A stretch of DNA of 12,639 bases from Naegleria gruberi (taxonomy: Eukaryota), in the NCBI GenBank assembly GCA_000004985.1, contig GG739000.1; one strand, 5' to 3'. The notes under the pieces are model-generated. The model saw nothing but the letters and a program-made list of their open reading frames with translations, was not told where the DNA came from and made no database searches. Position numbers and translations under genes: made by a program. Shown here piece after piece: positions 1,628 to 12,207 of this stretch (positions are counted from its first letter, which is position 1; the number at the start of each line of letters is the position of its first letter).

Positions 1628-3954
1628 NNNNNNNNNNNNNNNNNNNNNNNNNNNNNNNNNNNNNNNNNNNNNNNNNNNNNNNNNNNNNNNNNNNNNNNNN
1701 NNNNNNNNNNNNNNNNNNNNNNNNNNNNNNNNNNNNNNNNNNNNNNNNNNNNNNNNNNNNNNNNNNNNNNNNNNNNNNNNNNNNNNNNNNNNNNNNNNNN
1801 NNNNNNNNNNNNNNNNNNNNNNNNNNNNNNNNNNNNNNNNNNNNNNNNNNNNNNNNNNNNNNNNNNNNNNNNNNNNNNNNNNNNNNNNNNNNNNNNNNNN
1901 NNNNNNNNNNNNNNNNNNNNNNNNNNNNNNNNNNNNNNNNNNNNNNNNNNNNNNNNNNNNNNNNNNNNNNNNNNNNNNNNNNNNNNNNNNNNNNNNNNNN
2001 NNNNNNNNNNNNNNNNNNNNNNNNNNNNNNNNNNNNNNNNNNNNNNNNNNNNNNNNNNNNNNNNNNNNNNNNNNNNNNNNNNNNNNNNNNNNNNNNNNNN
2101 NNNNNNNNNNNNNNNNNNNNNNNNNNNNNNNNNNNNNNNNNNNNNNNNNNNNNNNNNNNNNNNNNNNNNNNNNNNNNNNNNNNNNNNNNNNNNNNNNNNN
2201 NNNNNNNNNNNNNNNNNNNNNNNNNNNNNNNNNNNNNNNNNNNNNNNNNNNNNNNNNNNNNNNNNNNNNNNNNNNNNNNNNNNNNNNNNNNNNNNNNNNN
2301 NNNNNNNNNNNNNNNNNNNNNNNNNNNNNNNNNNNNNNNNNNNNNNNNNNNNNNNNNNNNNNNNNNNNNNNNNNNNNNNNNNNNNNNNNNNNNNNNNNNN
2401 NNNNNNNNNNNNNNNNNNNNNNNNNNNNNNNNNNNNNNNNNNNNNNNNNNNNNNNNNNNNNNNNNNNNNNNNNNNNNNNNNNNNNNNNNNNNNNNNNNNN
2501 NNNNNNNNNNNNNNNNNNNNNNNNNNNNNNNNNNNNNNNNNNNNNNNNNNNNNNNNNNNNNNNNNNNNNNNNNNNNNNNNNNNNNNNNNNNNNNNNNNNN
2601 NNNNNNNNNNNNNNNNNNNNNNNNNNNNNNNNNNNNNNNNNNNNNNNNNNNNNNNNNNNNNNNNNNNNNNNNNNNNNNNNNNNNNNNNNNNNNNNNNNNN
2701 NNNNNNNNNNNNNNNNNNNNNNNNNNNNNNNNNNNNNNNNNNNNNNNNNNNNNNNNNNNNNNNNNNNNNNNNNNNNNNNNNNNNNNNNNNNNNNNNNNNN
2801 NNNNNNNNNNNNNNNNNNNNNNNNNNNNNNNNNNNNNNNNNNNNNNNNNNNNNNNNNNNNNNNNNNNNNNNNNNNNNNNNNNNNNNNNNNNNNNNNNNNN
2901 NNNNNNNNNNNNNNNNNNNNNNNNNNNNNNNNNNNNNNNNNNNNNNNNNNNNNNNNNNNNNNNNNNNNNNNNNNNNNNNNNNNNNNNNNNNNNNNNNNNN
3001 NNNNNNNNNNNNNNNNNNNNNNNNNNNNNNNNNNNNNNNNNNNNNNNNNNNNNNNNNNNNNNNNNNNNNNNNNNNNNNNNNNNNNNNNNNNNNNNNNNNN
3101 NNNNNNNNNNNNNNNNNNNNNNNNNNNNNNNNNNNNNNNNNNNNNNNNNNNNNNNNNNNNNNNNNNNNNNNNNNNNNNNNNNNNNNNNNNNNNNNNNNNN
3201 NNNNNNNNNNNNNNNNNNNNNNNNNNNNNNNNNNNNNNNNNNNNNNNNNNNNNNNNNNNNNNNNNNNNNNNNNNNNNNNNNNNNNNNNNNNNNNNNNNNN
3301 NNNNNNNNNNNNNNNNNNNNNNNNNNNNNNNNNNNNNNNNNNNNNNNNNNNNNNNNNNNNNNNNNNNNNNNNNNNNNNNNNNNNNNNNNNNNNNNNNNNN
3401 NNNNNNNNNNNNNNNNNNNNNNNNNNNNNNNNNNNNNNNNNNNNNNNNNNNNNNNNNNNNNNNNNNNNNNNNNNNNNNNNNNNNNNNNNNNNNNNNNNNN
3501 NNNNNNNNNNNNNNNNNNNNNNNNNNNNNNNNNNNNNNNNNNNNNNNNNNNNNNNNNNNNNNNNNNNNNNNNNNNNNNNNNNNNNNNNNNNNNNNNNNNN
3601 NNNNNNNNNNNNNNNNNNNNNNNNNNNNNNNNNNNNNNNNNNNNNNNNNNNNNNNNNNNNNNNNNNNNNNNNNNNNNNNNNNNNNNNNNNNNNNNNNNNN
3701 NNNNNNNNNNNNNNNNNNNNNNNNNNNNNNNNNNNNNNNNNNNNNNNNNNNNNNNNNNNNNNNNNNNNNNNNNNNNNNNNNNNNNNNNNNNNNNNNNNNN
3801 NNNNNNNNNNNNNNNNNNNNNNNNNNNNNNNNNNNNNNNNNNNNNNNNNNNNNNNNNNNNNNNNNNNNNNNNNNNNNNNNNNNNNNNNNNNNNNNNNNNN
3901 NNNNNNNNNNNNNNNNNNNNNNNNNNNNNNNNNNNNNNNNNNNNNNNNNNNNNN
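1628..3954. other. assembly gap (2327 N)
   Basis: Uninterrupted N run. All six-frame 'ORFs' crossing it (1513-4002, 1595-3970, 1611-3977, 1620-3959) are artefacts of translating N. Confidence 0.99.
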
Positions 3955-4285: not shown

Positions 4286-6175
4286 TTATGGATCCATTTG
4301 AATGAGATTATGCTGTTGTTGATCTTCCTCTTGTTGATGAGATGCAACATGTTGACCTGGAAATGCATTTTGCAATTCTTCTTCATCCTCACTTAAAAAA
4401 TCATAGGATAGTTGCTCTCTGATTTCTCTTGCCTGTGAGGAAGAATTCTTTTTCATGTGATACCACAAGGCCAATAGAACAGCAACCAGGATAGTGGTTG
4501 ATGATGCAATCATTCCAGTTAATGGAAGAATATATCCATAGGATTCCTCTTCCTCAGCTGCTGTTGAATTGGTGCACACATGATTCTTGAATGAAATTCT
4601 GAAACCTTCAGGACAAAATGGAACTGCCTTCATTATGAACCTTTCTGTTTGATCTACAAAGTAGAAGGACAATCCATCAGTTGCAAAACGAACAGAGTGG
4701 AGTAACGCCGAATCGCTTTTAAAAACAAACTCAATCAAAGCATTTTCATCTCCAAGTTTCAAGCGATACACTCTTCCAATTGATGAGGTTATTTTTCGAA
4801 TCAAATACATACAAGTCACCATCATTGGTGTAGTGAACATCTTTAGGTTGAAGAGTGTTTTTGAAGCGTCACTTTCTGTATTGTATCCAGACACTCCAGG
4901 AATACCATAGATAGTAGAAATGATGCCGTCCTTTGAAACTGACATGATCTTGTGTATCTGCAATAACCATTTCGCCTTCAACACTGACAAAGAAGGAGGA
5001 AACTTCTTGAATTTTGGCCTCTGTTGCTGGAAGTCCATCACCCAAGCCACCTGCAACCTTGGTAAGAGTATTTCCTTTTACTTTCCATACGAAACGAGTT
5101 GGTTCGGTAAAGTAAATTTCATCTTCTGTTGGAATAAGAAGTAGTTGTAGCATCAGAACCAACAATTCTCACCAATTTACCATCAACAACCTTACTCACA
5201 AACATTTCATGGGCAACATGTATTTCATCCTTACTGTTAATCAAAACAGATGGTGGCATTTTCACATCGATAAACCTTTCCCAAGTTCCATCTGTTTTAA
5301 GCTTGAAAAGGAATGATCCAAATTTTAAGGCAATAATGAAATCACCATTTGAAAGTACATCAAAGGATGAAATAGAGGAGGTTTTTTCTTGACGAACTAG
5401 TTCCGTTTGACCAGTTTCGGCTTTGACAATAGTCAAAGAATCTAGAAGGCATAGATAAATATCACCATTATCCATTATTTTCATTTTACCTGGCAAAAAT
5501 ATTCTTGATAGATGCTCATATTTGGAATTTACCTTAAGGGTTTCCAAATTCAAAATTTTTAAACTATTGCCCTCAATAAAGAAAATCTGACGTCTAGACC
5601 GTGGGAGGTGAGAAGGATTGACAAATATTTTTATAAAAAATTTAGAAGTCACTCAAAAAACAAAAATTTGTTAAAGTCGAGCCGAAGGTTTATTGGACCA
5701 AGAGTGAGACAGTGTGTTCAAAGTATCAATTACCACTTGTTCTTCTAGAAACAAGTACTTCTGGGTAATTGTTGTTTGTTGTTTTTTTTTGTTGAATATT
5801 TAACGGTCAGAACAGACAACTTTCAGCGGTTTTTGGTTGGCGCGAAATTACCGTGATGTAACATTTTTTAGCTCACCTCCCTCGGTCTACTGACGTCAAT
5901 AGTAATCTCTTGACATTTCCAGTAGCTTGATCAATAACGAAAATCTCCTCTTCTTCTATTAAGACTTTGGTATCATTCCAAGCAAATCTTAGAGACATCC
6001 ATACTGGTTCTCCAATCACCGAATTTGTACCTTCTTCATTATCGGGAGAGATTGTTCCTCCAGCAATTCTCATGGTCCTCCATCTTAATGGAACTTTACT
6101 AACTCTCTCAATATTTGCAACTTGGCTTGTTGATGATGCCTTAATCATTATTTTGCTCCGATGAAATAACAACAT
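4286..6175 (-). CDS. multi-exon gene for a single-pass (type-I-like) membrane protein with a beta-propeller-like repeat ectodomain, a TM helix and an acidic cytoplasmic tail. Proposed exons: 5877..6175, 5181..5593, about 4968..5125, about 4286..4930 (last junction uncertain)
   Basis: ATG at 6175-6173 sits immediately after an in-frame TGA. Exon 1 ends ...CGA GGG AG|GTGAGC (donor at 5876-5875). Acceptor TCTAG|ACGTCAG at 5594 gives a 283-nt intron and an in-frame join (..SVDRGRRQIFF..). The second intron is 55 nt (5126..5180, GTAAAT...CCAACAG) and joins ..VSKVVD|EDEIYFTEP.. in frame. A third frame change near 4931-4967 could be a 37-nt GT-AG element or a real frameshift. The protein has repeated strand-rich blocks (DGKLVRIV, NGDFIIALKFGS, IYFTEP, DGIISTIYGIPG). 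A hydrophobic 23-mer (ILPLTGMIASSTTILVAVLLALW) is followed by KKNSSS..DFLSEDEEEL..QQEEDQQQ. Stop is TAATAA at 4288-4283, overlapping an AATAAA on the minus strand. No N-terminal signal peptide was found in exon 1. Confidence 0.55.
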
Positions 6176-6302
6176 TCATCAACAAAGCAATAGTAATGTA
6201 TAACACGATAGAGGTCCAAATTTTAATGGCTCCAACCCTCTCGATGGAGAATGAGCTCCTAGTAGAAGATCCTCCCTTATTGCAATTGTTTGTTGTCGTG
6301 TG

Positions 6303-6371
6303 CCCGCTAAACACTTACTGTCAAAGCGTGCTGGTACTTTGACGATTTTGCGTCAAGCTATTTTCGTCAAA
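6303..6371. repeat. left motif cluster: 9-mer CCCGCTAAA (6303-6311), then TTGACGATTTT (6339-6349), GCGTCAA (6350-6356) and TTTTCGTCAAA (6361-6371)
   Basis: TTGACGATTTT is identical to 8908-8918 in direct orientation. TTTTCGTCAAA is the exact reverse complement of TTTGACGAAAA at 8995-9005. CCCGCTAAA is the exact reverse complement of TTTAGCGGG at 9032-9040. Confidence 0.6.
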
Positions 6372-6610
6372 CAAGCGAAAAGTTGTCTTAGCAGGAGGGA
6401 ACTTGGAAATTTTTCCAATTTCAAATAACAAATAAATTTCCAAGTCAATAAATTTCAATTTATTAAAAGTATTGATATGCATAATAATGCACAGGAATAT
6501 ATTTCTCTTCATCAGGGAGTTTGACAACAACACATGGGAGCATTTCAAATGCTTCACTTCTACTAATCTCCCTTGTCTTATTGGTGGTGTTGGAAATTAA
6601 GGTAATCTCA

Positions 6611-7615
6611 TTAAAATCTTTTGAAAGATGCCACTTTGAAAACTTCGTTCGTTTTGATATCCTTGATACAATCTAATTCCTTTCTTACAACGTAGTGACC
6701 AACTATACATTCAGAGGCAATAAGAGGTTCATTTAAATCCATTAAATCACATAATTGGCACATATCAAAGTACATGATTGAATATCGAGCAGAATTTGAA
6801 CAAACGTAAGTCTTTGAGAGTGTGAAATTGAGCCCTTCTCCAATAAAAGCAGAATTTACACCAAGAGGGCCGTACATTCTACAAGAATTGACTAACTCAG
6901 TACAAATATGAAAGTTTGGTGTTGCTTTCTTTTCTCCAACCACTTTCTGATAATCAATTAACACTTGAAACAATTCAATCTCAATGTCTCCTAATTTGGA
7001 TAACTGAAATGAGTCTGTCAGCTTATCAATTATAGAGGCAAATCTATGAATTATTTCAACCTTTGATTCTATTTCCTTAAATCCTTCGATATGCGTAAAC
7101 AGCTCTAAATAATAATGACAGATCATGTAAATTTCAATTGCCTTTAGACTGTTCATAATCTGGCCATTTGTGGTCTTTCTAGGATGCTTGTGAAGGAATG
7201 ATGGATACTTTTGTTTCAGAAACAATGTCAAATCTTTCCCAGTATTGAACAGGGATCATTTTCATCATTTCTTGGAAAACTCCTTCATATAATACATGCA
7301 TTGAATCATAGCAACAAATATCTGATGGTGATGGATTCAATTCTTGATCCAAAATTGGTGAAATTGGATGCACAATAGAGTCTCCCTATGCAAAGACATC
7401 TTGATACTCATCTAAACAGCTCACCATTTGATTAATCATTTCATTCATATTTCTGACTGCGTGTTTATATCTAGCCAATTCTTTCTTAATTCTTTCATTC
7501 TCATCAACTAAATCATTATAGTGTTTCAAAAATGCAGAATTTGCAAATGATTCCGGAACTTCATTTGAATCATCATTGCTTGAAGAAGCCTTCTTGTTGG
7601 AAGGTTCATTGTAAG
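6611..7615 (-). pseudogene. transposase-derived ORF, C-terminal-region-like, recalling plant En/Spm-CACTA TNP2 (Transposase_21 + DUF4218) or fungal KDZ transposases. The reading frame is disrupted by an in-frame TAG (7388-7386) and a +1 shift near 7180-7230
   Basis: Three collinear minus-strand ORF pieces: 7425-7615, 7182-7385 (same frame, separated only by TAG) and 6611-7231 (shifted frame). Motifs, recalled from memory and not searched: ...DICCYDSMHVLYEGVFQEMM... resembles the D-x-MH-[IV]-EKN-V block. About 150 aa downstream, ...ATPNFHICTELVNSCRMYGPLGVNSAFIGEGLNFT...NSARYSIMYFD... resembles PK[ML]H-x-LVHL...GP...WMYPFER...ARPEGSIAEGY of DUF4218. There is no DDE-region counterpart upstream; that space is taken by a + strand ORF. 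This fits a truncated, decayed copy. Confidence 0.38.
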
Positions 7616-7722
7616 AAGAAGCATTCTTGGTAGAAGACTTTGGTCATGATGATAAAACCATTGTGCTCACCCATAAAGAGAGAGCAAAGATTTGTGAATT
7701 AGGTGAGAAAACCTCTCAAATA

Positions 7723-8070
7723 ATGCATGTTTGCTCTACCTACTTTGAAAAGTCAATTACAAAGCTTAACCAAGATGAAAGAAAGCTATTGTTTAAGATA
7801 ATATTTGATGCAATGGGTTGGAAAATAAGCAAACACAAGAACAAACTCAGTAAATACAGAGGTGTCTTTAGAACAATTGCAAGCAACCTTAAGAAAAAGA
7901 AGGGTGCAAAACAAAATGAATCAGTAAAGAAGAAGAAGACAGAACTTGAGGAGACCATCTCAAAAAAGAGAAAAGAAAGAGAGGAAAACAATGATTCTGG
8001 ATCATCCTCTTGTGAGGAAGAAACCATTGAAGAGGATTCCACTGATGATATGAGTGATGATGAATGTTGA
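7723..8070 (+). CDS. small Lys/Glu-rich protein (115 aa from the first ATG; frame open from 7615) with a basic KKKK/KRK core and an acidic Ser/Asp C-terminal tail (..SSSCEEETIEEDSTDDMSDDEC*)
   Basis: The 147-codon stop-free frame 7627-8070 has strongly biased charged composition. The opposite-strand ORF 7740-8153 is a poly-F/L/S antisense shadow. AATAAA at 8109-8114 lies 39 nt after the TGA (8068-8070). First ATG is at 7723. A GGTGAG at 7702-7707 could mark an upstream splice donor, so the 5' end is uncertain. Confidence 0.5.
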   Translation: MHVCSTYFEKSITKLNQDERKLLFKIIFDAMGWKISKHKNKLSKYRGVFRTIASNLKKKKGAKQNESVKKKKTELEETISKKRKEREENNDSGSSSCEEETIEEDSTDDMSDDEC

Positions 8071-8108
8071 TTGTAAAATGTTGGGTTATTAAATGGGAAT
8101 TTATTTTT

Positions 8109-8114
8109 AATAAA
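8109..8114 (+). other. polyadenylation signal AATAAA for the 7723-8070 gene
   Basis: Canonical hexamer 39 nt downstream of the stop, inside an A/T-rich tract. Confidence 0.4.
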
Positions 8115-8278
8115 AAAATGTCTACACATCAACTCCCTCATCATATCATACAAAACTGTCGGTTAGTACTACAACATTATTTTTACTACAATTTAAAATC
8201 ATCAGTGATCACTCATTAAATATTGAATAGTATCATTAATTTGTTAATACGATAATTGTTGGCGGAGTTTTATTGTTT

Positions 8279-8380
8279 ATTGGTTTGTTGTATTTAAATT
8301 TCTTAATTTCTTAATTTTTTAATTATTGTTGTTAGTTGGATTTATAAAGATTTTATTCTTCGAAATTGGTTTGTTGTATT
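8279..8380. repeat. 16-bp direct repeat ATTGGTTTGTTGTATT (8279-8294 and 8365-8380) flanking a tandem TCTTAATT x2 (8299-8314)
   Basis: Exact matches read from the sequence; AT-rich intergenic DNA downstream of the 7723-8070 gene. Confidence 0.6.
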
Positions 8381-8747
8381 ATTTTCATATTATATGATTT
8401 TACCTGCTACGGATCATCAAAATTATTCATCACAAGAAATTAGGTAATTTGTTATAATTCAATTTGTGCTAAACAGCACGATTTATATGCAAGCAACAGA
8501 TTTTGAACAGAAAACAATGTAAGTAATTTTGATTTATTATCATTAATTTTGAATGTAACTGAAGAGGTGAGTGATATTTCATCAGTTGGAGTGAGGATGA
8601 GGAGTGTAGATATTTTTTTCGGTTGGAAATTTGGAATGGAAGTGGATCTAATAATAGATGAGTTTGGAACTTGGAAATTTTACAAGATTTTGGAGTAAAT
8701 AATTGCTGGAATTTAGTCAATAATTGACAATAATTATTATGAATTTT

Positions 8748-9040
8748 TTGACGTAATTATTGATGTTTTTTCATCAATATTTGATACAAAACATTATCAA
8801 TTTATTATCAATTTTTGACGTCAAAAATTGATAATAAATCATTAAGAATTGACGATAATTCTTGACGTCAATTGCGCGTTAATTTGGAATTTTTCTCCCA
8901 ACACTTGTTGACGATTTTATTATGCTTTAAGCATCAATTTTTAACATTTTTCAATAAACTTTATTTCATAATTTTGCAATCTGATACGTTAAAATTTGAC
9001 GAAAAAATTGTTAAAATTATCATCAAAATAATTTAGCGGG
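8748..9040. repeat. right motif cluster: at least 6 TTGACG cores (8748, 8815, 8849, 8863, 8908, 8996), a TGACGTCA palindrome (8864-8871), an 8-bp inverted repeat AATTGACG/CGTCAATT (8847-8854/8866-8873) and terminal 9-mer TTTAGCGGG (9032-9040)
   Basis: Direct count in the sequence. TTGACG is expected about 3 times in the whole readable window on both strands at this base composition. It occurs about 10 times, and all copies fall in these two ~300-bp regions. Confidence 0.75.
8800..8839. repeat. 40-bp perfect palindrome ATTTATTATCAATTTTTGACGTCAAAAATTGATAATAAAT centred on GACGTC
   Basis: Checked base by base: 8800-8819 is the exact reverse complement of 8820-8839. The palindrome breaks at 8799/8840. 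Confidence 0.95.
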
Positions 9041-9222
9041 GTGTTGAGAAGAAATTTTTTTTTTTAAAATAATATGGTTGGTTATCTTCCGAGAAACTGG
9101 GAATTCTTTTTCGGTTTGGATTAAGTAATATACCCTAACGAACACAATCACATCCAATTTTTAACTATAAGGCAACGCTGTTTTTGGTCTGTATATGAAG
9201 AATTTTTAATAATGAATGTGAA

Positions 9223-9293
9223 GCGTCGATGGTTTAGTGGTAGAATACGGCGTTGCCATCGCCGTGACCCGGGTTCAATTCCCGGTCGACGCA
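9223..9293 (+). tRNA. tRNA-Gly (anticodon GCC), 71 nt
   Basis: GCGTCGA acceptor 5' arm pairs with TCGACGC at 9286-9292, with discriminator A at 9293. The D-arm is GTTT/AGTGGTA/GAAT, matching the A box TTTAGTGGTAG. The anticodon stem CGGCG/CGCCG carries loop TTGCCAT, giving GCC. There is a 4-nt variable loop. The T-arm CCGGG-TTCAATT-CCCGG matches the B box GGTTCAATTCC. No CCA is encoded. The anticodon arm ACGTTGCCATCG matches yeast tRNA-Gly(GCC) as I recall it. Confidence 0.93.
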
Positions 9294-9307: not shown

Positions 9308-9572
9308 ATTCCTTCGTTGTTGAAGTAATTTTAATTATTTTTCTACCACTCATGGAAGACATGTATTTGTACAATAATCTGTATTTTCTCTCAATTTAGA
9401 ACAGTAATCATTGAGATATTCACCTCCTTCCAAATAGCATTTTTTAACCTAAAAAATATGCTAAAAAAAGATGCCGACTAACTTTTTAACAACAACAATA
9501 CAGATTGATCTCCTGGAAACATGCCGACAACATGATTCTATCACCAATGGATTTAACGATTCCCAATGAGAT

Positions 9573-10818
9573 NNNNNNNNNNNNNNNNNNNNNNNNNNNN
9601 NNNNNNNNNNNNNNNNNNNNNNNNNNNNNNNNNNNNNNNNNNNNNNNNNNNNNNNNNNNNNNNNNNNNNNNNNNNNNNNNNNNNNNNNNNNNNNNNNNNN
9701 NNNNNNNNNNNNNNNNNNNNNNNNNNNNNNNNNNNNNNNNNNNNNNNNNNNNNNNNNNNNNNNNNNNNNNNNNNNNNNNNNNNNNNNNNNNNNNNNNNNN
9801 NNNNNNNNNNNNNNNNNNNNNNNNNNNNNNNNNNNNNNNNNNNNNNNNNNNNNNNNNNNNNNNNNNNNNNNNNNNNNNNNNNNNNNNNNNNNNNNNNNNN
9901 NNNNNNNNNNNNNNNNNNNNNNNNNNNNNNNNNNNNNNNNNNNNNNNNNNNNNNNNNNNNNNNNNNNNNNNNNNNNNNNNNNNNNNNNNNNNNNNNNNNN
10001 NNNNNNNNNNNNNNNNNNNNNNNNNNNNNNNNNNNNNNNNNNNNNNNNNNNNNNNNNNNNNNNNNNNNNNNNNNNNNNNNNNNNNNNNNNNNNNNNNNNN
10101 NNNNNNNNNNNNNNNNNNNNNNNNNNNNNNNNNNNNNNNNNNNNNNNNNNNNNNNNNNNNNNNNNNNNNNNNNNNNNNNNNNNNNNNNNNNNNNNNNNNN
10201 NNNNNNNNNNNNNNNNNNNNNNNNNNNNNNNNNNNNNNNNNNNNNNNNNNNNNNNNNNNNNNNNNNNNNNNNNNNNNNNNNNNNNNNNNNNNNNNNNNNN
10301 NNNNNNNNNNNNNNNNNNNNNNNNNNNNNNNNNNNNNNNNNNNNNNNNNNNNNNNNNNNNNNNNNNNNNNNNNNNNNNNNNNNNNNNNNNNNNNNNNNNN
10401 NNNNNNNNNNNNNNNNNNNNNNNNNNNNNNNNNNNNNNNNNNNNNNNNNNNNNNNNNNNNNNNNNNNNNNNNNNNNNNNNNNNNNNNNNNNNNNNNNNNN
10501 NNNNNNNNNNNNNNNNNNNNNNNNNNNNNNNNNNNNNNNNNNNNNNNNNNNNNNNNNNNNNNNNNNNNNNNNNNNNNNNNNNNNNNNNNNNNNNNNNNNN
10601 NNNNNNNNNNNNNNNNNNNNNNNNNNNNNNNNNNNNNNNNNNNNNNNNNNNNNNNNNNNNNNNNNNNNNNNNNNNNNNNNNNNNNNNNNNNNNNNNNNNN
10701 NNNNNNNNNNNNNNNNNNNNNNNNNNNNNNNNNNNNNNNNNNNNNNNNNNNNNNNNNNNNNNNNNNNNNNNNNNNNNNNNNNNNNNNNNNNNNNNNNNNN
10801 NNNNNNNNNNNNNNNNNN
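9573..10818. other. assembly gap (1246 N)
   Basis: N run. ORFs 9486-10841, 9505-10848 and 9566-10912, and the 9553-10818 part of ORF 9553-11898, are artefacts. Confidence 0.99.
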
Positions 10819-12207
10819 ATCGAGAAGTGGGCTATCTTCATCCATTAGATTGATTGAATGTGGAGAGTCTGGTGATGTAGGCGAAATGCTGAATGTTGGT
10901 TGTGTTGGTTGAGAAAAACATGGGTTGGTAAATCTTCCCATTCCTGGATAATTTTCCATGACTTCCATTCTCCTTACCATTTCTTCTTCTTCCATTTTCA
11001 TAACATATCTACTATATTCTTCTTCTTCTTCCAGTCTTCTCATATTTATCATTCTTCTCCTTCCAAAACCTCCACCACCTCTAAAACGACGACCTACAGG
11101 ATTATAGTCTCTTTCCATCATTCTCAAAGATTGGAAATCAGGATGGTCATCCATTGCATCATATTGCTGATCAGATTGATTCATTGTTTTGAATGAATTG
11201 GTAGCATTGGAAAACTTGCCAATAAATCCCTTTCCTTCATTTTCCTTCAGGTAGACATGCAAAGGTTGTTTGAGATTTGACTCTATTCCCCTCACATTGT
11301 TATAAAAAGCCTTGAGAGCATTTCTCTTGGATTCGTCAAGCCTCTTTGTCTGAAAGTTAAAGTTGAAATTCAAAGCCTTCTCCTCTCCTTTATCGTCACA
11401 ATGATTCTTCTTTTTGATAGTTCTTCTGACAAAGTGACCCTTTGGTGGTGCAACATTTCTTTCAATCTTACGAGGTGAAATATGATATGGATCAGTTGAT
11501 GATGATGATGACTCCTTTCCAAACTCTATGAATGCAAATGAATCATCTTGTTCTTCTCTAGCTAATGATAATGCTGATTCGAATGATTGTCCCATAGAGA
11601 AGAATGGAGATTCATACGATGAGGCTGTTTGCTGCTGCTCCTCCAACTCCTCTTTAGTGTAGAGTTTCGTATCAACTTTGAATAGGCTCTCATCTTCACA
11701 ATAGAGAGAAGAATAAGGCTTGTTCGATTGTTCTGCAGAAGGGCCTCCACCACCACCATACGAACGAATCATTGAGTTGTTGTTGTATCTTAGAGGTTTT
11801 ACCATAGTAGTATACAGAGAGAAAGGTGTGCTTGTTGTTGAGGTGTTTTTTTCGAGTTGTAGTTCTTTGGCTTTTCTGTGTTTGAGGCTGTTTTTCAATG
11901 TAGTGAATCAAGGCTGACTCGCTAAGAGTATTGTTATCGGAGGAAGAAACAAGCCTAATTTTCAATTCTCTCTCTTTGATGAGAGGCAATTTCAATTTGA
12001 AAAAGGTAGTGACAATTTGTGGAGGCTCCACACTGAGAATATCACATGGTCATAGATCTGTGTGATTTCGAATAATATTAATCATCAAATAATTACTAAA
12101 TTTTCACAAAGCCAATAATATAGTCAACATCAAAACCTAATAATCCACATGTGATCTTCCTCTCTGCCCTTTTCATAGGATTCCAACATGTCAACCCAAA
12201 TGTTCAT
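10819..12207 (-). CDS. 5' portion of a gene for a low-complexity RGG-box / poly-Glu / Ser-rich protein; 3' part lost in the gap. Proposed exons: 12137..12207 (ATG 12207-12205), 11919..12032, and <=11887 running into the gap; alternative start ATG at 11805-11803
   Basis: A stop-free frame runs 10819-11887, about 356 codons. Content includes ..RRFRGGGGFGRRR.., LEEEEEYSRYVMKMEEEEMV, SSSSS and a QPTQPTFSISPTSPDSP tail running into the gap. Upstream frame pieces join in frame if a 31-nt element (11888..11918, GTCAGC...AAAAACAG) and a 104-nt intron (12033..12136, GTTTTG...TATTCTCAG) are removed. ATG 12207 has an in-frame TGA 21 nt upstream. The exon structure is inferred, not verified. Confidence 0.5.

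Follow-up and report, generated by a model that had tools for sequence, protein, structure and literature searches.

A probable defective, non-autonomous copy of a two-gene CMC transposon in Naegleria gruberi

The stretch of DNA analyzed here (the window) comprises 12,639 nucleotides of Naegleria gruberi contig GG739000.1 and is AT-rich eukaryotic DNA with two runs of N, at 1628-3954 (2,327 bases) and 9573-10818 (1,246 bases). The region 6303-9040 lies between these runs, is free of gaps, and contains the remnants of two genes together with terminal and subterminal sequences, as follows:

6300-6302 and again 9041-9043: flanking GTG, a candidate 3-bp target-site duplication read from the sequence
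6303-6311, plus strand: terminal inverted repeat CCCGCTAAA, the transposase-side end, pairing 9/9 with 9032-9040
6312-6462, minus strand: subterminal noncoding region 3' of the transposase stop, where three TTGACG/CGTCAA motifs lie within 6339-6370
6463-7366, minus strand: transposase gene remnant, about residues 457-751 of a 751-aa Naegleria lovaniensis protein
7367-7643, minus strand: internal ORF-A fragment of 277 bp, inverted relative to the remaining ORF-A, with a nonsense TAG at 7386-7388
7644-8070, plus strand: 3' part of ORF-A, HDDKTIVLTHKE...DDEC, 141 codons with the frame intact and a TGA stop at 8068-8070
8071-9031: ORF-A-side subterminal noncoding region, with eight TTGACG motifs at 8748-9001
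9032-9040, minus strand: terminal inverted repeat, reading TTTAGCGGG on the plus strand, the ORF-A-side end

Three ORF pieces occupy the minus strand, at 7386-7529 (open to 7643), 7179-7373 and 6611-7231. An earlier note on this DNA, made from the sequence alone, had read them as one frame-damaged protein; the pieces and the motifs quoted from them are all present where they were placed, and two of the three do belong together. By sequence comparison, the minus strand from 7366 to 6463 is the last ~300 codons (the C-terminal 40%) of a transposase gene whose reading frame two 2-bp frameshifts interrupt. Its recognizable blocks are the following:

7310-7278, minus strand: YDSMHVLYEGV
6922-6908, minus strand: TPNFH
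6877-6863, minus strand: MYGPL
6853-6824, minus strand: SAFIGEGLNF
6793-6764, minus strand: SARYSIMYFD

Within these blocks, the aspartate codon of a D-x-M-H motif lies at 7305-7307, the first histidine of an H(3-4)H motif at 6908-6910, and the predicted catalytic glutamate at 6836-6838.

The frame shift reported in the earlier note near 7226 is a loss of AT (2 bp) in GACATATTG, at 7226/7227, relative to the 5.5-kb metagenome contig L001. A second 2-bp frameshift, at ~6623/6624, had gone unnoticed and conceals the last ~50 codons, and the remnant, which had been taken to end at 6611, runs on to a TAA at 6463-6465. After KVASF, the N. gruberi "predicted proteins" P0001 and P0002 continue with SKDFNEITL...YQNF. 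In the window this stretch is encoded in a different frame, ending at that TAA, and these final ~50 codons match P0001, P0002 and the N. lovaniensis protein P0004 up to their C termini. The repaired fragment is 98.7% identical to P0001 (231 aa), 61% identical to P0002 (301 aa) and 48.5% identical to P0004, and its translation also retrieved P0003, encoded on L001.

A profile was built from 61 relatives only, with the identified Naegleria proteins left out. It gives the ORF at 6614-7255 a score of 51.3 bits (E = 4e-16) and the ORF at 7182-7385 one of 16.2 bits (E = 2e-5); for the repaired fragment the score is 64.9 bits, a similarity between the fragment and its relatives that, at the sequence level, is far beyond chance. 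The score of the 5' piece (7389-7643) is -0.2 bits, and in L001 and N. lovaniensis this piece belongs to a gene on the opposite strand; it is therefore not part of the transposase. The first ~456 transposase codons, including those for both predicted catalytic aspartates and the C(2)C zinc motif, are gone from the window copy, leaving the glutamate codon at 6836-6838 as the sole survivor of the predicted DDE triad. The earlier view that the catalytic N-terminal region is missing and that the sequence is a decaying element copy is thus upheld.

The third ORF piece, at 7367-7643, is an inverted fragment of the second gene, ORF-A. In blastn alignments, L001 2962-3134 (transposase) corresponds to window 7366-7196, reversed, at 97% identity; L001 422-682 corresponds to window 7367-7643, direct, at 92% identity; and L001 319-423 corresponds to window 7748-7644, reversed, at 99% identity. 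Positions 319-682 of L001 form one continuous frame on the strand opposite the transposase (...KHYNDLVDENERIKK...DVFALGDSIVH, followed directly by HDDKTIVLTHKERAK...), which is broken in the window after DVFALGDSIVH: everything up to this point is read from the minus strand, and the remainder from the plus strand, over 7645-8067 with its stop codon at 8068-8070. Relative to L001, positions 683-2961 are absent from the window and the adjoining 277 bp are inverted. This ancestral order is inferred from one metagenome contig, itself truncated and frameshifted, and the inversion could be an assembly error. The first ~290 codons of ORF-A and the promoter region shared by the two genes are also gone, and about half of the element is missing through one internal deletion. 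The TAG that the earlier note had placed in the transposase frame does exist, at 7386-7388, where L001 has a TTG (Leu) codon of ORF-A; since the 5' piece is ORF-A, the TAG does not interrupt the transposase.

The inversion breakpoint falls inside a 10-bp palindrome, CATCATGATG (L001 414-423; window 7644-7652 / 7367-7370). Two base pairs (GA) are used on both sides of this breakpoint, and their reuse at a palindrome suggests an origin by hairpin formation or template switching. The L001 copy is itself defective (L001 3134-5519 and ~590-600): its transposase homology stops at 3134 (KYPSF, followed by GR and a stop), where a minus-strand gene with a BTB domain starts, and two ORFs, separated at 581-584, now make up its ORF-A. 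This split lies in the block 422-682, which has two gaps relative to the window.

ORF-A encodes a protein of ~470-520 aa with a Ser/Asn-rich linker and a coiled coil, and is collinear and homologous in four elements. The N. lovaniensis ORF-A and the rejoined N. gruberi-type sequence are 23% identical (E = 9e-10). A Pfam scan of ORF-A gave nothing, and a profile search returned Naegleria proteins only, with no relatives detected outside this genus. The AlphaFold model of ORF-A (pLDDT 38.7) was too poor for a structure search. Its C terminus may be BEN-like in appearance.

The ends of the window copy are recognizable by comparison with related elements. CCCGC occurs once in the window (at 6303), as does GCGGG (at 9036-9040), and the two extend to a perfect 9-bp inverted repeat situated outside both gene remnants and oriented as the N. 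lovaniensis elements predict. The window contains 309 inverted pairs of 9 nt, and the 9-bp terminal repeat by itself is not significant; it is accepted because the CCCGC terminus is conserved and its position fits. The CCCGC(T) terminus also bounds the identical N. lovaniensis copies and is found at the left ends of the elements on L006/L007 and L005. The boundaries at 6303 and 9040 are set by this likeness, from a single copy, and are best regarded as probable. The flanking repeats are GTG/GTG (3 bp) in the window and 2 bp in three N. lovaniensis copies, leaving their length uncertain at 2-3 bp. TTGACG occurs 14 times in the window, compared with an expectation of 2.15, and 11 of the 14 occurrences are in the two subterminal regions. 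The ORF-A-side subterminal region also contains a perfect 40-bp palindrome at 8800-8839 (two 20-nt arms, no spacer, centre TTGACGTCAA), and a perfect 16-nt direct repeat, GGAACTTGGAAATTTT, is present in both subterminal regions, at 6398-6413 and 8666-8681.

The window fragment has paralogues in both species, namely P0002 and P0006 (N. gruberi) and P0004 and P0152 (N. lovaniensis). Full-length paralogues retaining the DDE residues, which the earlier note had anticipated, are among them. The N. gruberi protein P0006 (690 aa) has all the conserved catalytic columns, and P0004 (751 aa), which was found with a composite full-length query, is encoded identically at three N. lovaniensis loci with unrelated neighbours. 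A further N. gruberi protein, P0008, is encoded on the same contig as P0002. The three P0004 loci share a block of 5,893 bp at 99.5 to 99.9% identity, with sharp ends (CCCGCTACTCGCGG... and ...CCATGAGAAGCGGG) flanked by 2-bp repeats (AA, TG and GA). The first 220 bp of these copies contain a cluster of TTGACG/CGTCAA motifs, and in each copy a divergent ORF-A lies 171 bp upstream of the transposase gene. On the contig L004 (12390-18837), the right flank of the element copy is mirrored: an ATPase gene and a short-chain dehydrogenase gene at 12410-15156 recur, inverted, at 16033-18779, and after them, at the contig end, stand 38 bp of the right end of the element, also inverted. Such a mirror would be either a true inverted duplication or a palindrome produced in assembling long reads.

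A second N. lovaniensis family encodes the 786-aa transposase P0152, which is 57% identical to P0004. Its block of 7,060 bp is 100% identical at two loci (L006 and L007 5449-12508), with the left end (T)CCCGCACCCC and the right end ...GATGGTACTCT; its right end has no matching inverted terminus, and no flank duplication was seen for this family. From the identity of their sequences, the N. lovaniensis copies appear to have been mobile recently and look young enough to be active. A RepeatMasker listing for N. lovaniensis includes 38 CMC-EnSpm pieces amounting to 69.8 kb (PMC6125883); no description of the Naegleria element family itself was found in the searchable literature.

At 2,738 bp, as against 5,893 bp for the intact N. 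lovaniensis element, the window copy keeps both termini and has lost internal coding sequence. Window positions 6303-9040 thus very probably represent a cut-and-paste transposon of Naegleria with two genes, from the CMC (CACTA/En-Spm, Mirage, Chapaev) superfamily, in a copy that is defective and non-autonomous.

The superfamily assignment came by an indirect route. In direct hmmscan searches of Pfam, the window fragment, its pieces and P0001 to P0005 had no match, including to PF02992 and PF13960, the families to which the earlier note had pointed, and the neighbouring ORFs gave nothing meaningful. The best Naegleria member, P0152, reaches PF02992 with 27.7 bits (E = 1.9e-6), just under the cut-off of 28.6. 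A family profile of four members, searched against 1.84 billion representatives, matched 787 proteins at E <= 1e-3, 146 of them at E <= 1e-10, and five of the top matches (profile E from 1e-21 to 1e-18) exceed the gathering score of PF02992. Among 63 scanned relatives, Pfam identified PF02992 Transposase_21 (TNP2) in 58, DUF1258 (PF06869) in 53 and DUF4218 (PF13960) in 22 (best E = 9.7e-6), and it is with these 22 that the window aligns over the H...GP...F-x-F-E block. The link to PF02992 emerges only through the family profile, and the predicted structure also supports it.

Eight columns are invariant among the 63 proteins: D301, D380, C398, C401, D475, H478, H606 and E630 (P0004 numbering). 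D301 ends a strand (293-303) in the P0004 model, D380 follows just after another (371-378), and E630 lies in a helix (627-637); these three residues are the predicted DDE triad for catalysis, carried by an RNase H-like core. Position 610, the second histidine of H(3-4)H, is histidine in at least 90% of the relatives, aspartate in P0004 and glutamate in the window (TPNFHICTE). By sequence profile and motif layout, the Naegleria elements very probably belong to the CMC superfamily, which bears out the TNP2/En-Spm half of the earlier comparison.

An AlphaFold2 model of the transposase, based on the 63-sequence alignment, has a pLDDT of 76 and a pTM of 0.75. A Foldseek search of the PDB with this model gave 13 matches at E <= 1e-3, all of them RAG1, BbRAGL or HzTransib (E from 6e-9 to 4e-4). 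These are the only significant structural matches, with alignments of 500 to 700 columns, a sequence identity of ~10% and modest TM-scores when normalized by target length (0.42-0.55 for RAG1/BbRAGL and 0.33-0.34 for HzTransib), and as the outcome of a model comparison they point to a shared fold, not to family membership in Transib/RAG1. The C(2)C and H(3-4)H layout is also that of the Transib/RAG1/ProtoRAG (BbRAGL) proteins (PMC12730594), and the published relationship between CMC and Transib agrees with the fold matches (PMC12730594). Unlike RAG1, the Naegleria element is without a RAG2-like partner; unlike Transib, it has flank repeats shorter than 5 bp, and its sequence profiles lead to TNP2-type proteins.

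The Naegleria elements resemble known CMC elements in their significant profile homology over ~500 residues. CMC target-site duplications measure 2-5 bp; the candidate duplications here are short but inconsistent, at 2 bp in the first N. lovaniensis family and 3 bp in the window, with none seen in the second family. The subterminal repeats are clustered as in En/Spm, and an accessory gene likewise accompanies the transposase gene. In contrast to the CAC(TA)...GTG ends of CMC elements, the Naegleria termini are CCCGC...GCGGG: those tested read CCCGCT...AGCGGG, not CA...TG, in the window and in the first N. lovaniensis family, and the left ends of two more elements agree. CA...TG/CACTA termini are usual in the clade "in most cases" and are not an absolute criterion (PMC12730594). 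Further differences are the aspartate or glutamate in place of the second histidine of H(3-4)H, a sequence too diverged for the Pfam gathering thresholds, and the divergent transcription of the two genes; likeness between ORF-A, which has no detected relatives outside Naegleria, and TnpA of En/Spm was not seen.

Three other explanations of the locus are less probable. The earlier note had also likened the protein to KDZ elements (Kyakuja/Dileera/Zisupton), and placing the element there, or in Plavaka, instead of in CMC is the most improbable of the three. These groups likewise comprise large eukaryotic DDE transposases, Plavaka also has C(2)C/H(3-4)H (PMC12730594), and 2 of the 63 relatives have Plavaka matches, though weak ones (best E = 1.1e-3). 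Yet no KDZ family is matched in Pfam by the window fragment, the Naegleria proteins or any of the 63 relatives, compared with 58 of 63 for Transposase_21 and 53 of 63 for DUF1258. The target duplication of Zisupton is 8 bp (PMC12730594), as opposed to flank repeats of 2-3 bp here, and Plavaka itself is now placed beside EnSpm (PMC12730594). Scarcely more credible is a reading of the fragment as a host gene, functional or domesticated, whose apparent lesions would be introns or recoding sites. A sequence 98.7% identical to it does have an N. gruberi gene model (the 231-aa P0001), and an open frame is kept in the 3' part of ORF-A, but the start of P0001 lies past the first frameshift, as is typical of a gene caller rescuing an ORF. 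The frame breaks are not introns but sites at which relatives differ by 2 bp, TAG stands in place of the L001 TTG, the C(2)C motif has been lost along with two of the three predicted catalytic residues, and the fragment lies between transposon termini, beside an inverted scrap of another gene. A sense reading of the TAG and an interpretation of the breaks as tiny introns were both discarded, relatives having TTG and 2-bp indels at those exact places.

The remaining explanation accepts the element and attributes the deletion and inversion, at 7366/7367 and 7643/7644, to misassembly of the window. The location of the breakpoint in the 10-bp palindrome, the two N runs in the window and the reliance on a single metagenome contig as the comparator all speak for an artefact of this kind. 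It is nonetheless unlikely: no gap exists within 6303-9040, the deletion junction fuses two coding regions cleanly, the transposase remnant has decayed independently, and P0001, a different N. gruberi sequence, also begins past the first frameshift, consistent with a similarly truncated copy.

The intact N. lovaniensis element, of ~5.9 kb, has two divergently transcribed genes, one for ORF-A and one for a DDE transposase of ~750 aa whose predicted fold is RAG1/Transib-like. The intact enzyme may excise and reinsert the element, producing short (2-3 bp) target duplications, and ORF-A, like TnpA in En/Spm, may bind the subterminal repeats (TTGACG). In the window copy, the deletion and the inversion could both have arisen at the 10-bp palindrome in a single event, through faulty repair or template switching, with the two 2-bp frameshifts and the nonsense codon presumably arising later. 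Such a copy would be unable to make transposase and would be movable at most in trans. Internally deleted non-autonomous derivatives of this type are known as dSpm or I elements, and the window copy is like them.

The window copy is an ordinary decayed transposon copy, ordinary genomic debris, and its interest lies in what it says about annotation and about the family. The N. gruberi "predicted proteins" P0001 and P0002 are transposon debris and not host genes, and CMC elements of Naegleria have been missed by Pfam-based annotation. CMC transposases with a predicted RAG1/Transib fold are extended to Heterolobosea, with atypical termini, and the window copy illustrates clearly how a deletion derivative can come to carry a local inversion. 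The Naegleria elements might also constitute a distinct, deep-branching CMC/Transib lineage, marked by CCCGC termini, H(3)D/E and a lineage-specific ORF-A, and active currently or very recently in N. lovaniensis, a tentative proposal about which we are more doubtful than confident. If this were true, the family would provide a tractable RAG1-fold transposase from a heterolobosean, and the window copy would preserve the trace of a repair event at a palindrome that both deleted and inverted DNA.

The minus-strand ORFs at 4286-5056, 5119-5652 and 5873-6175 have no Pfam match and probably form one host gene, starting ~130 bp from the element end. On the other side, 183 bp from the element end, is a tRNA-Gly(GCC) gene at 9223-9293 on the plus strand (ARAGORN; Rfam, 66.9 bits), the only match in the Rfam scan. 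The insertion looks intergenic, between the host gene at 4286-6175 and the tRNA. The related element copies, at five loci, all lack a nearby tRNA; the proximity seen here therefore looks coincidental, and tRNA-targeted insertion was rejected on the same observation. Farther downstream, the second N run falls inside a long minus-strand ORF (9553-11898) for an RGG-rich protein.
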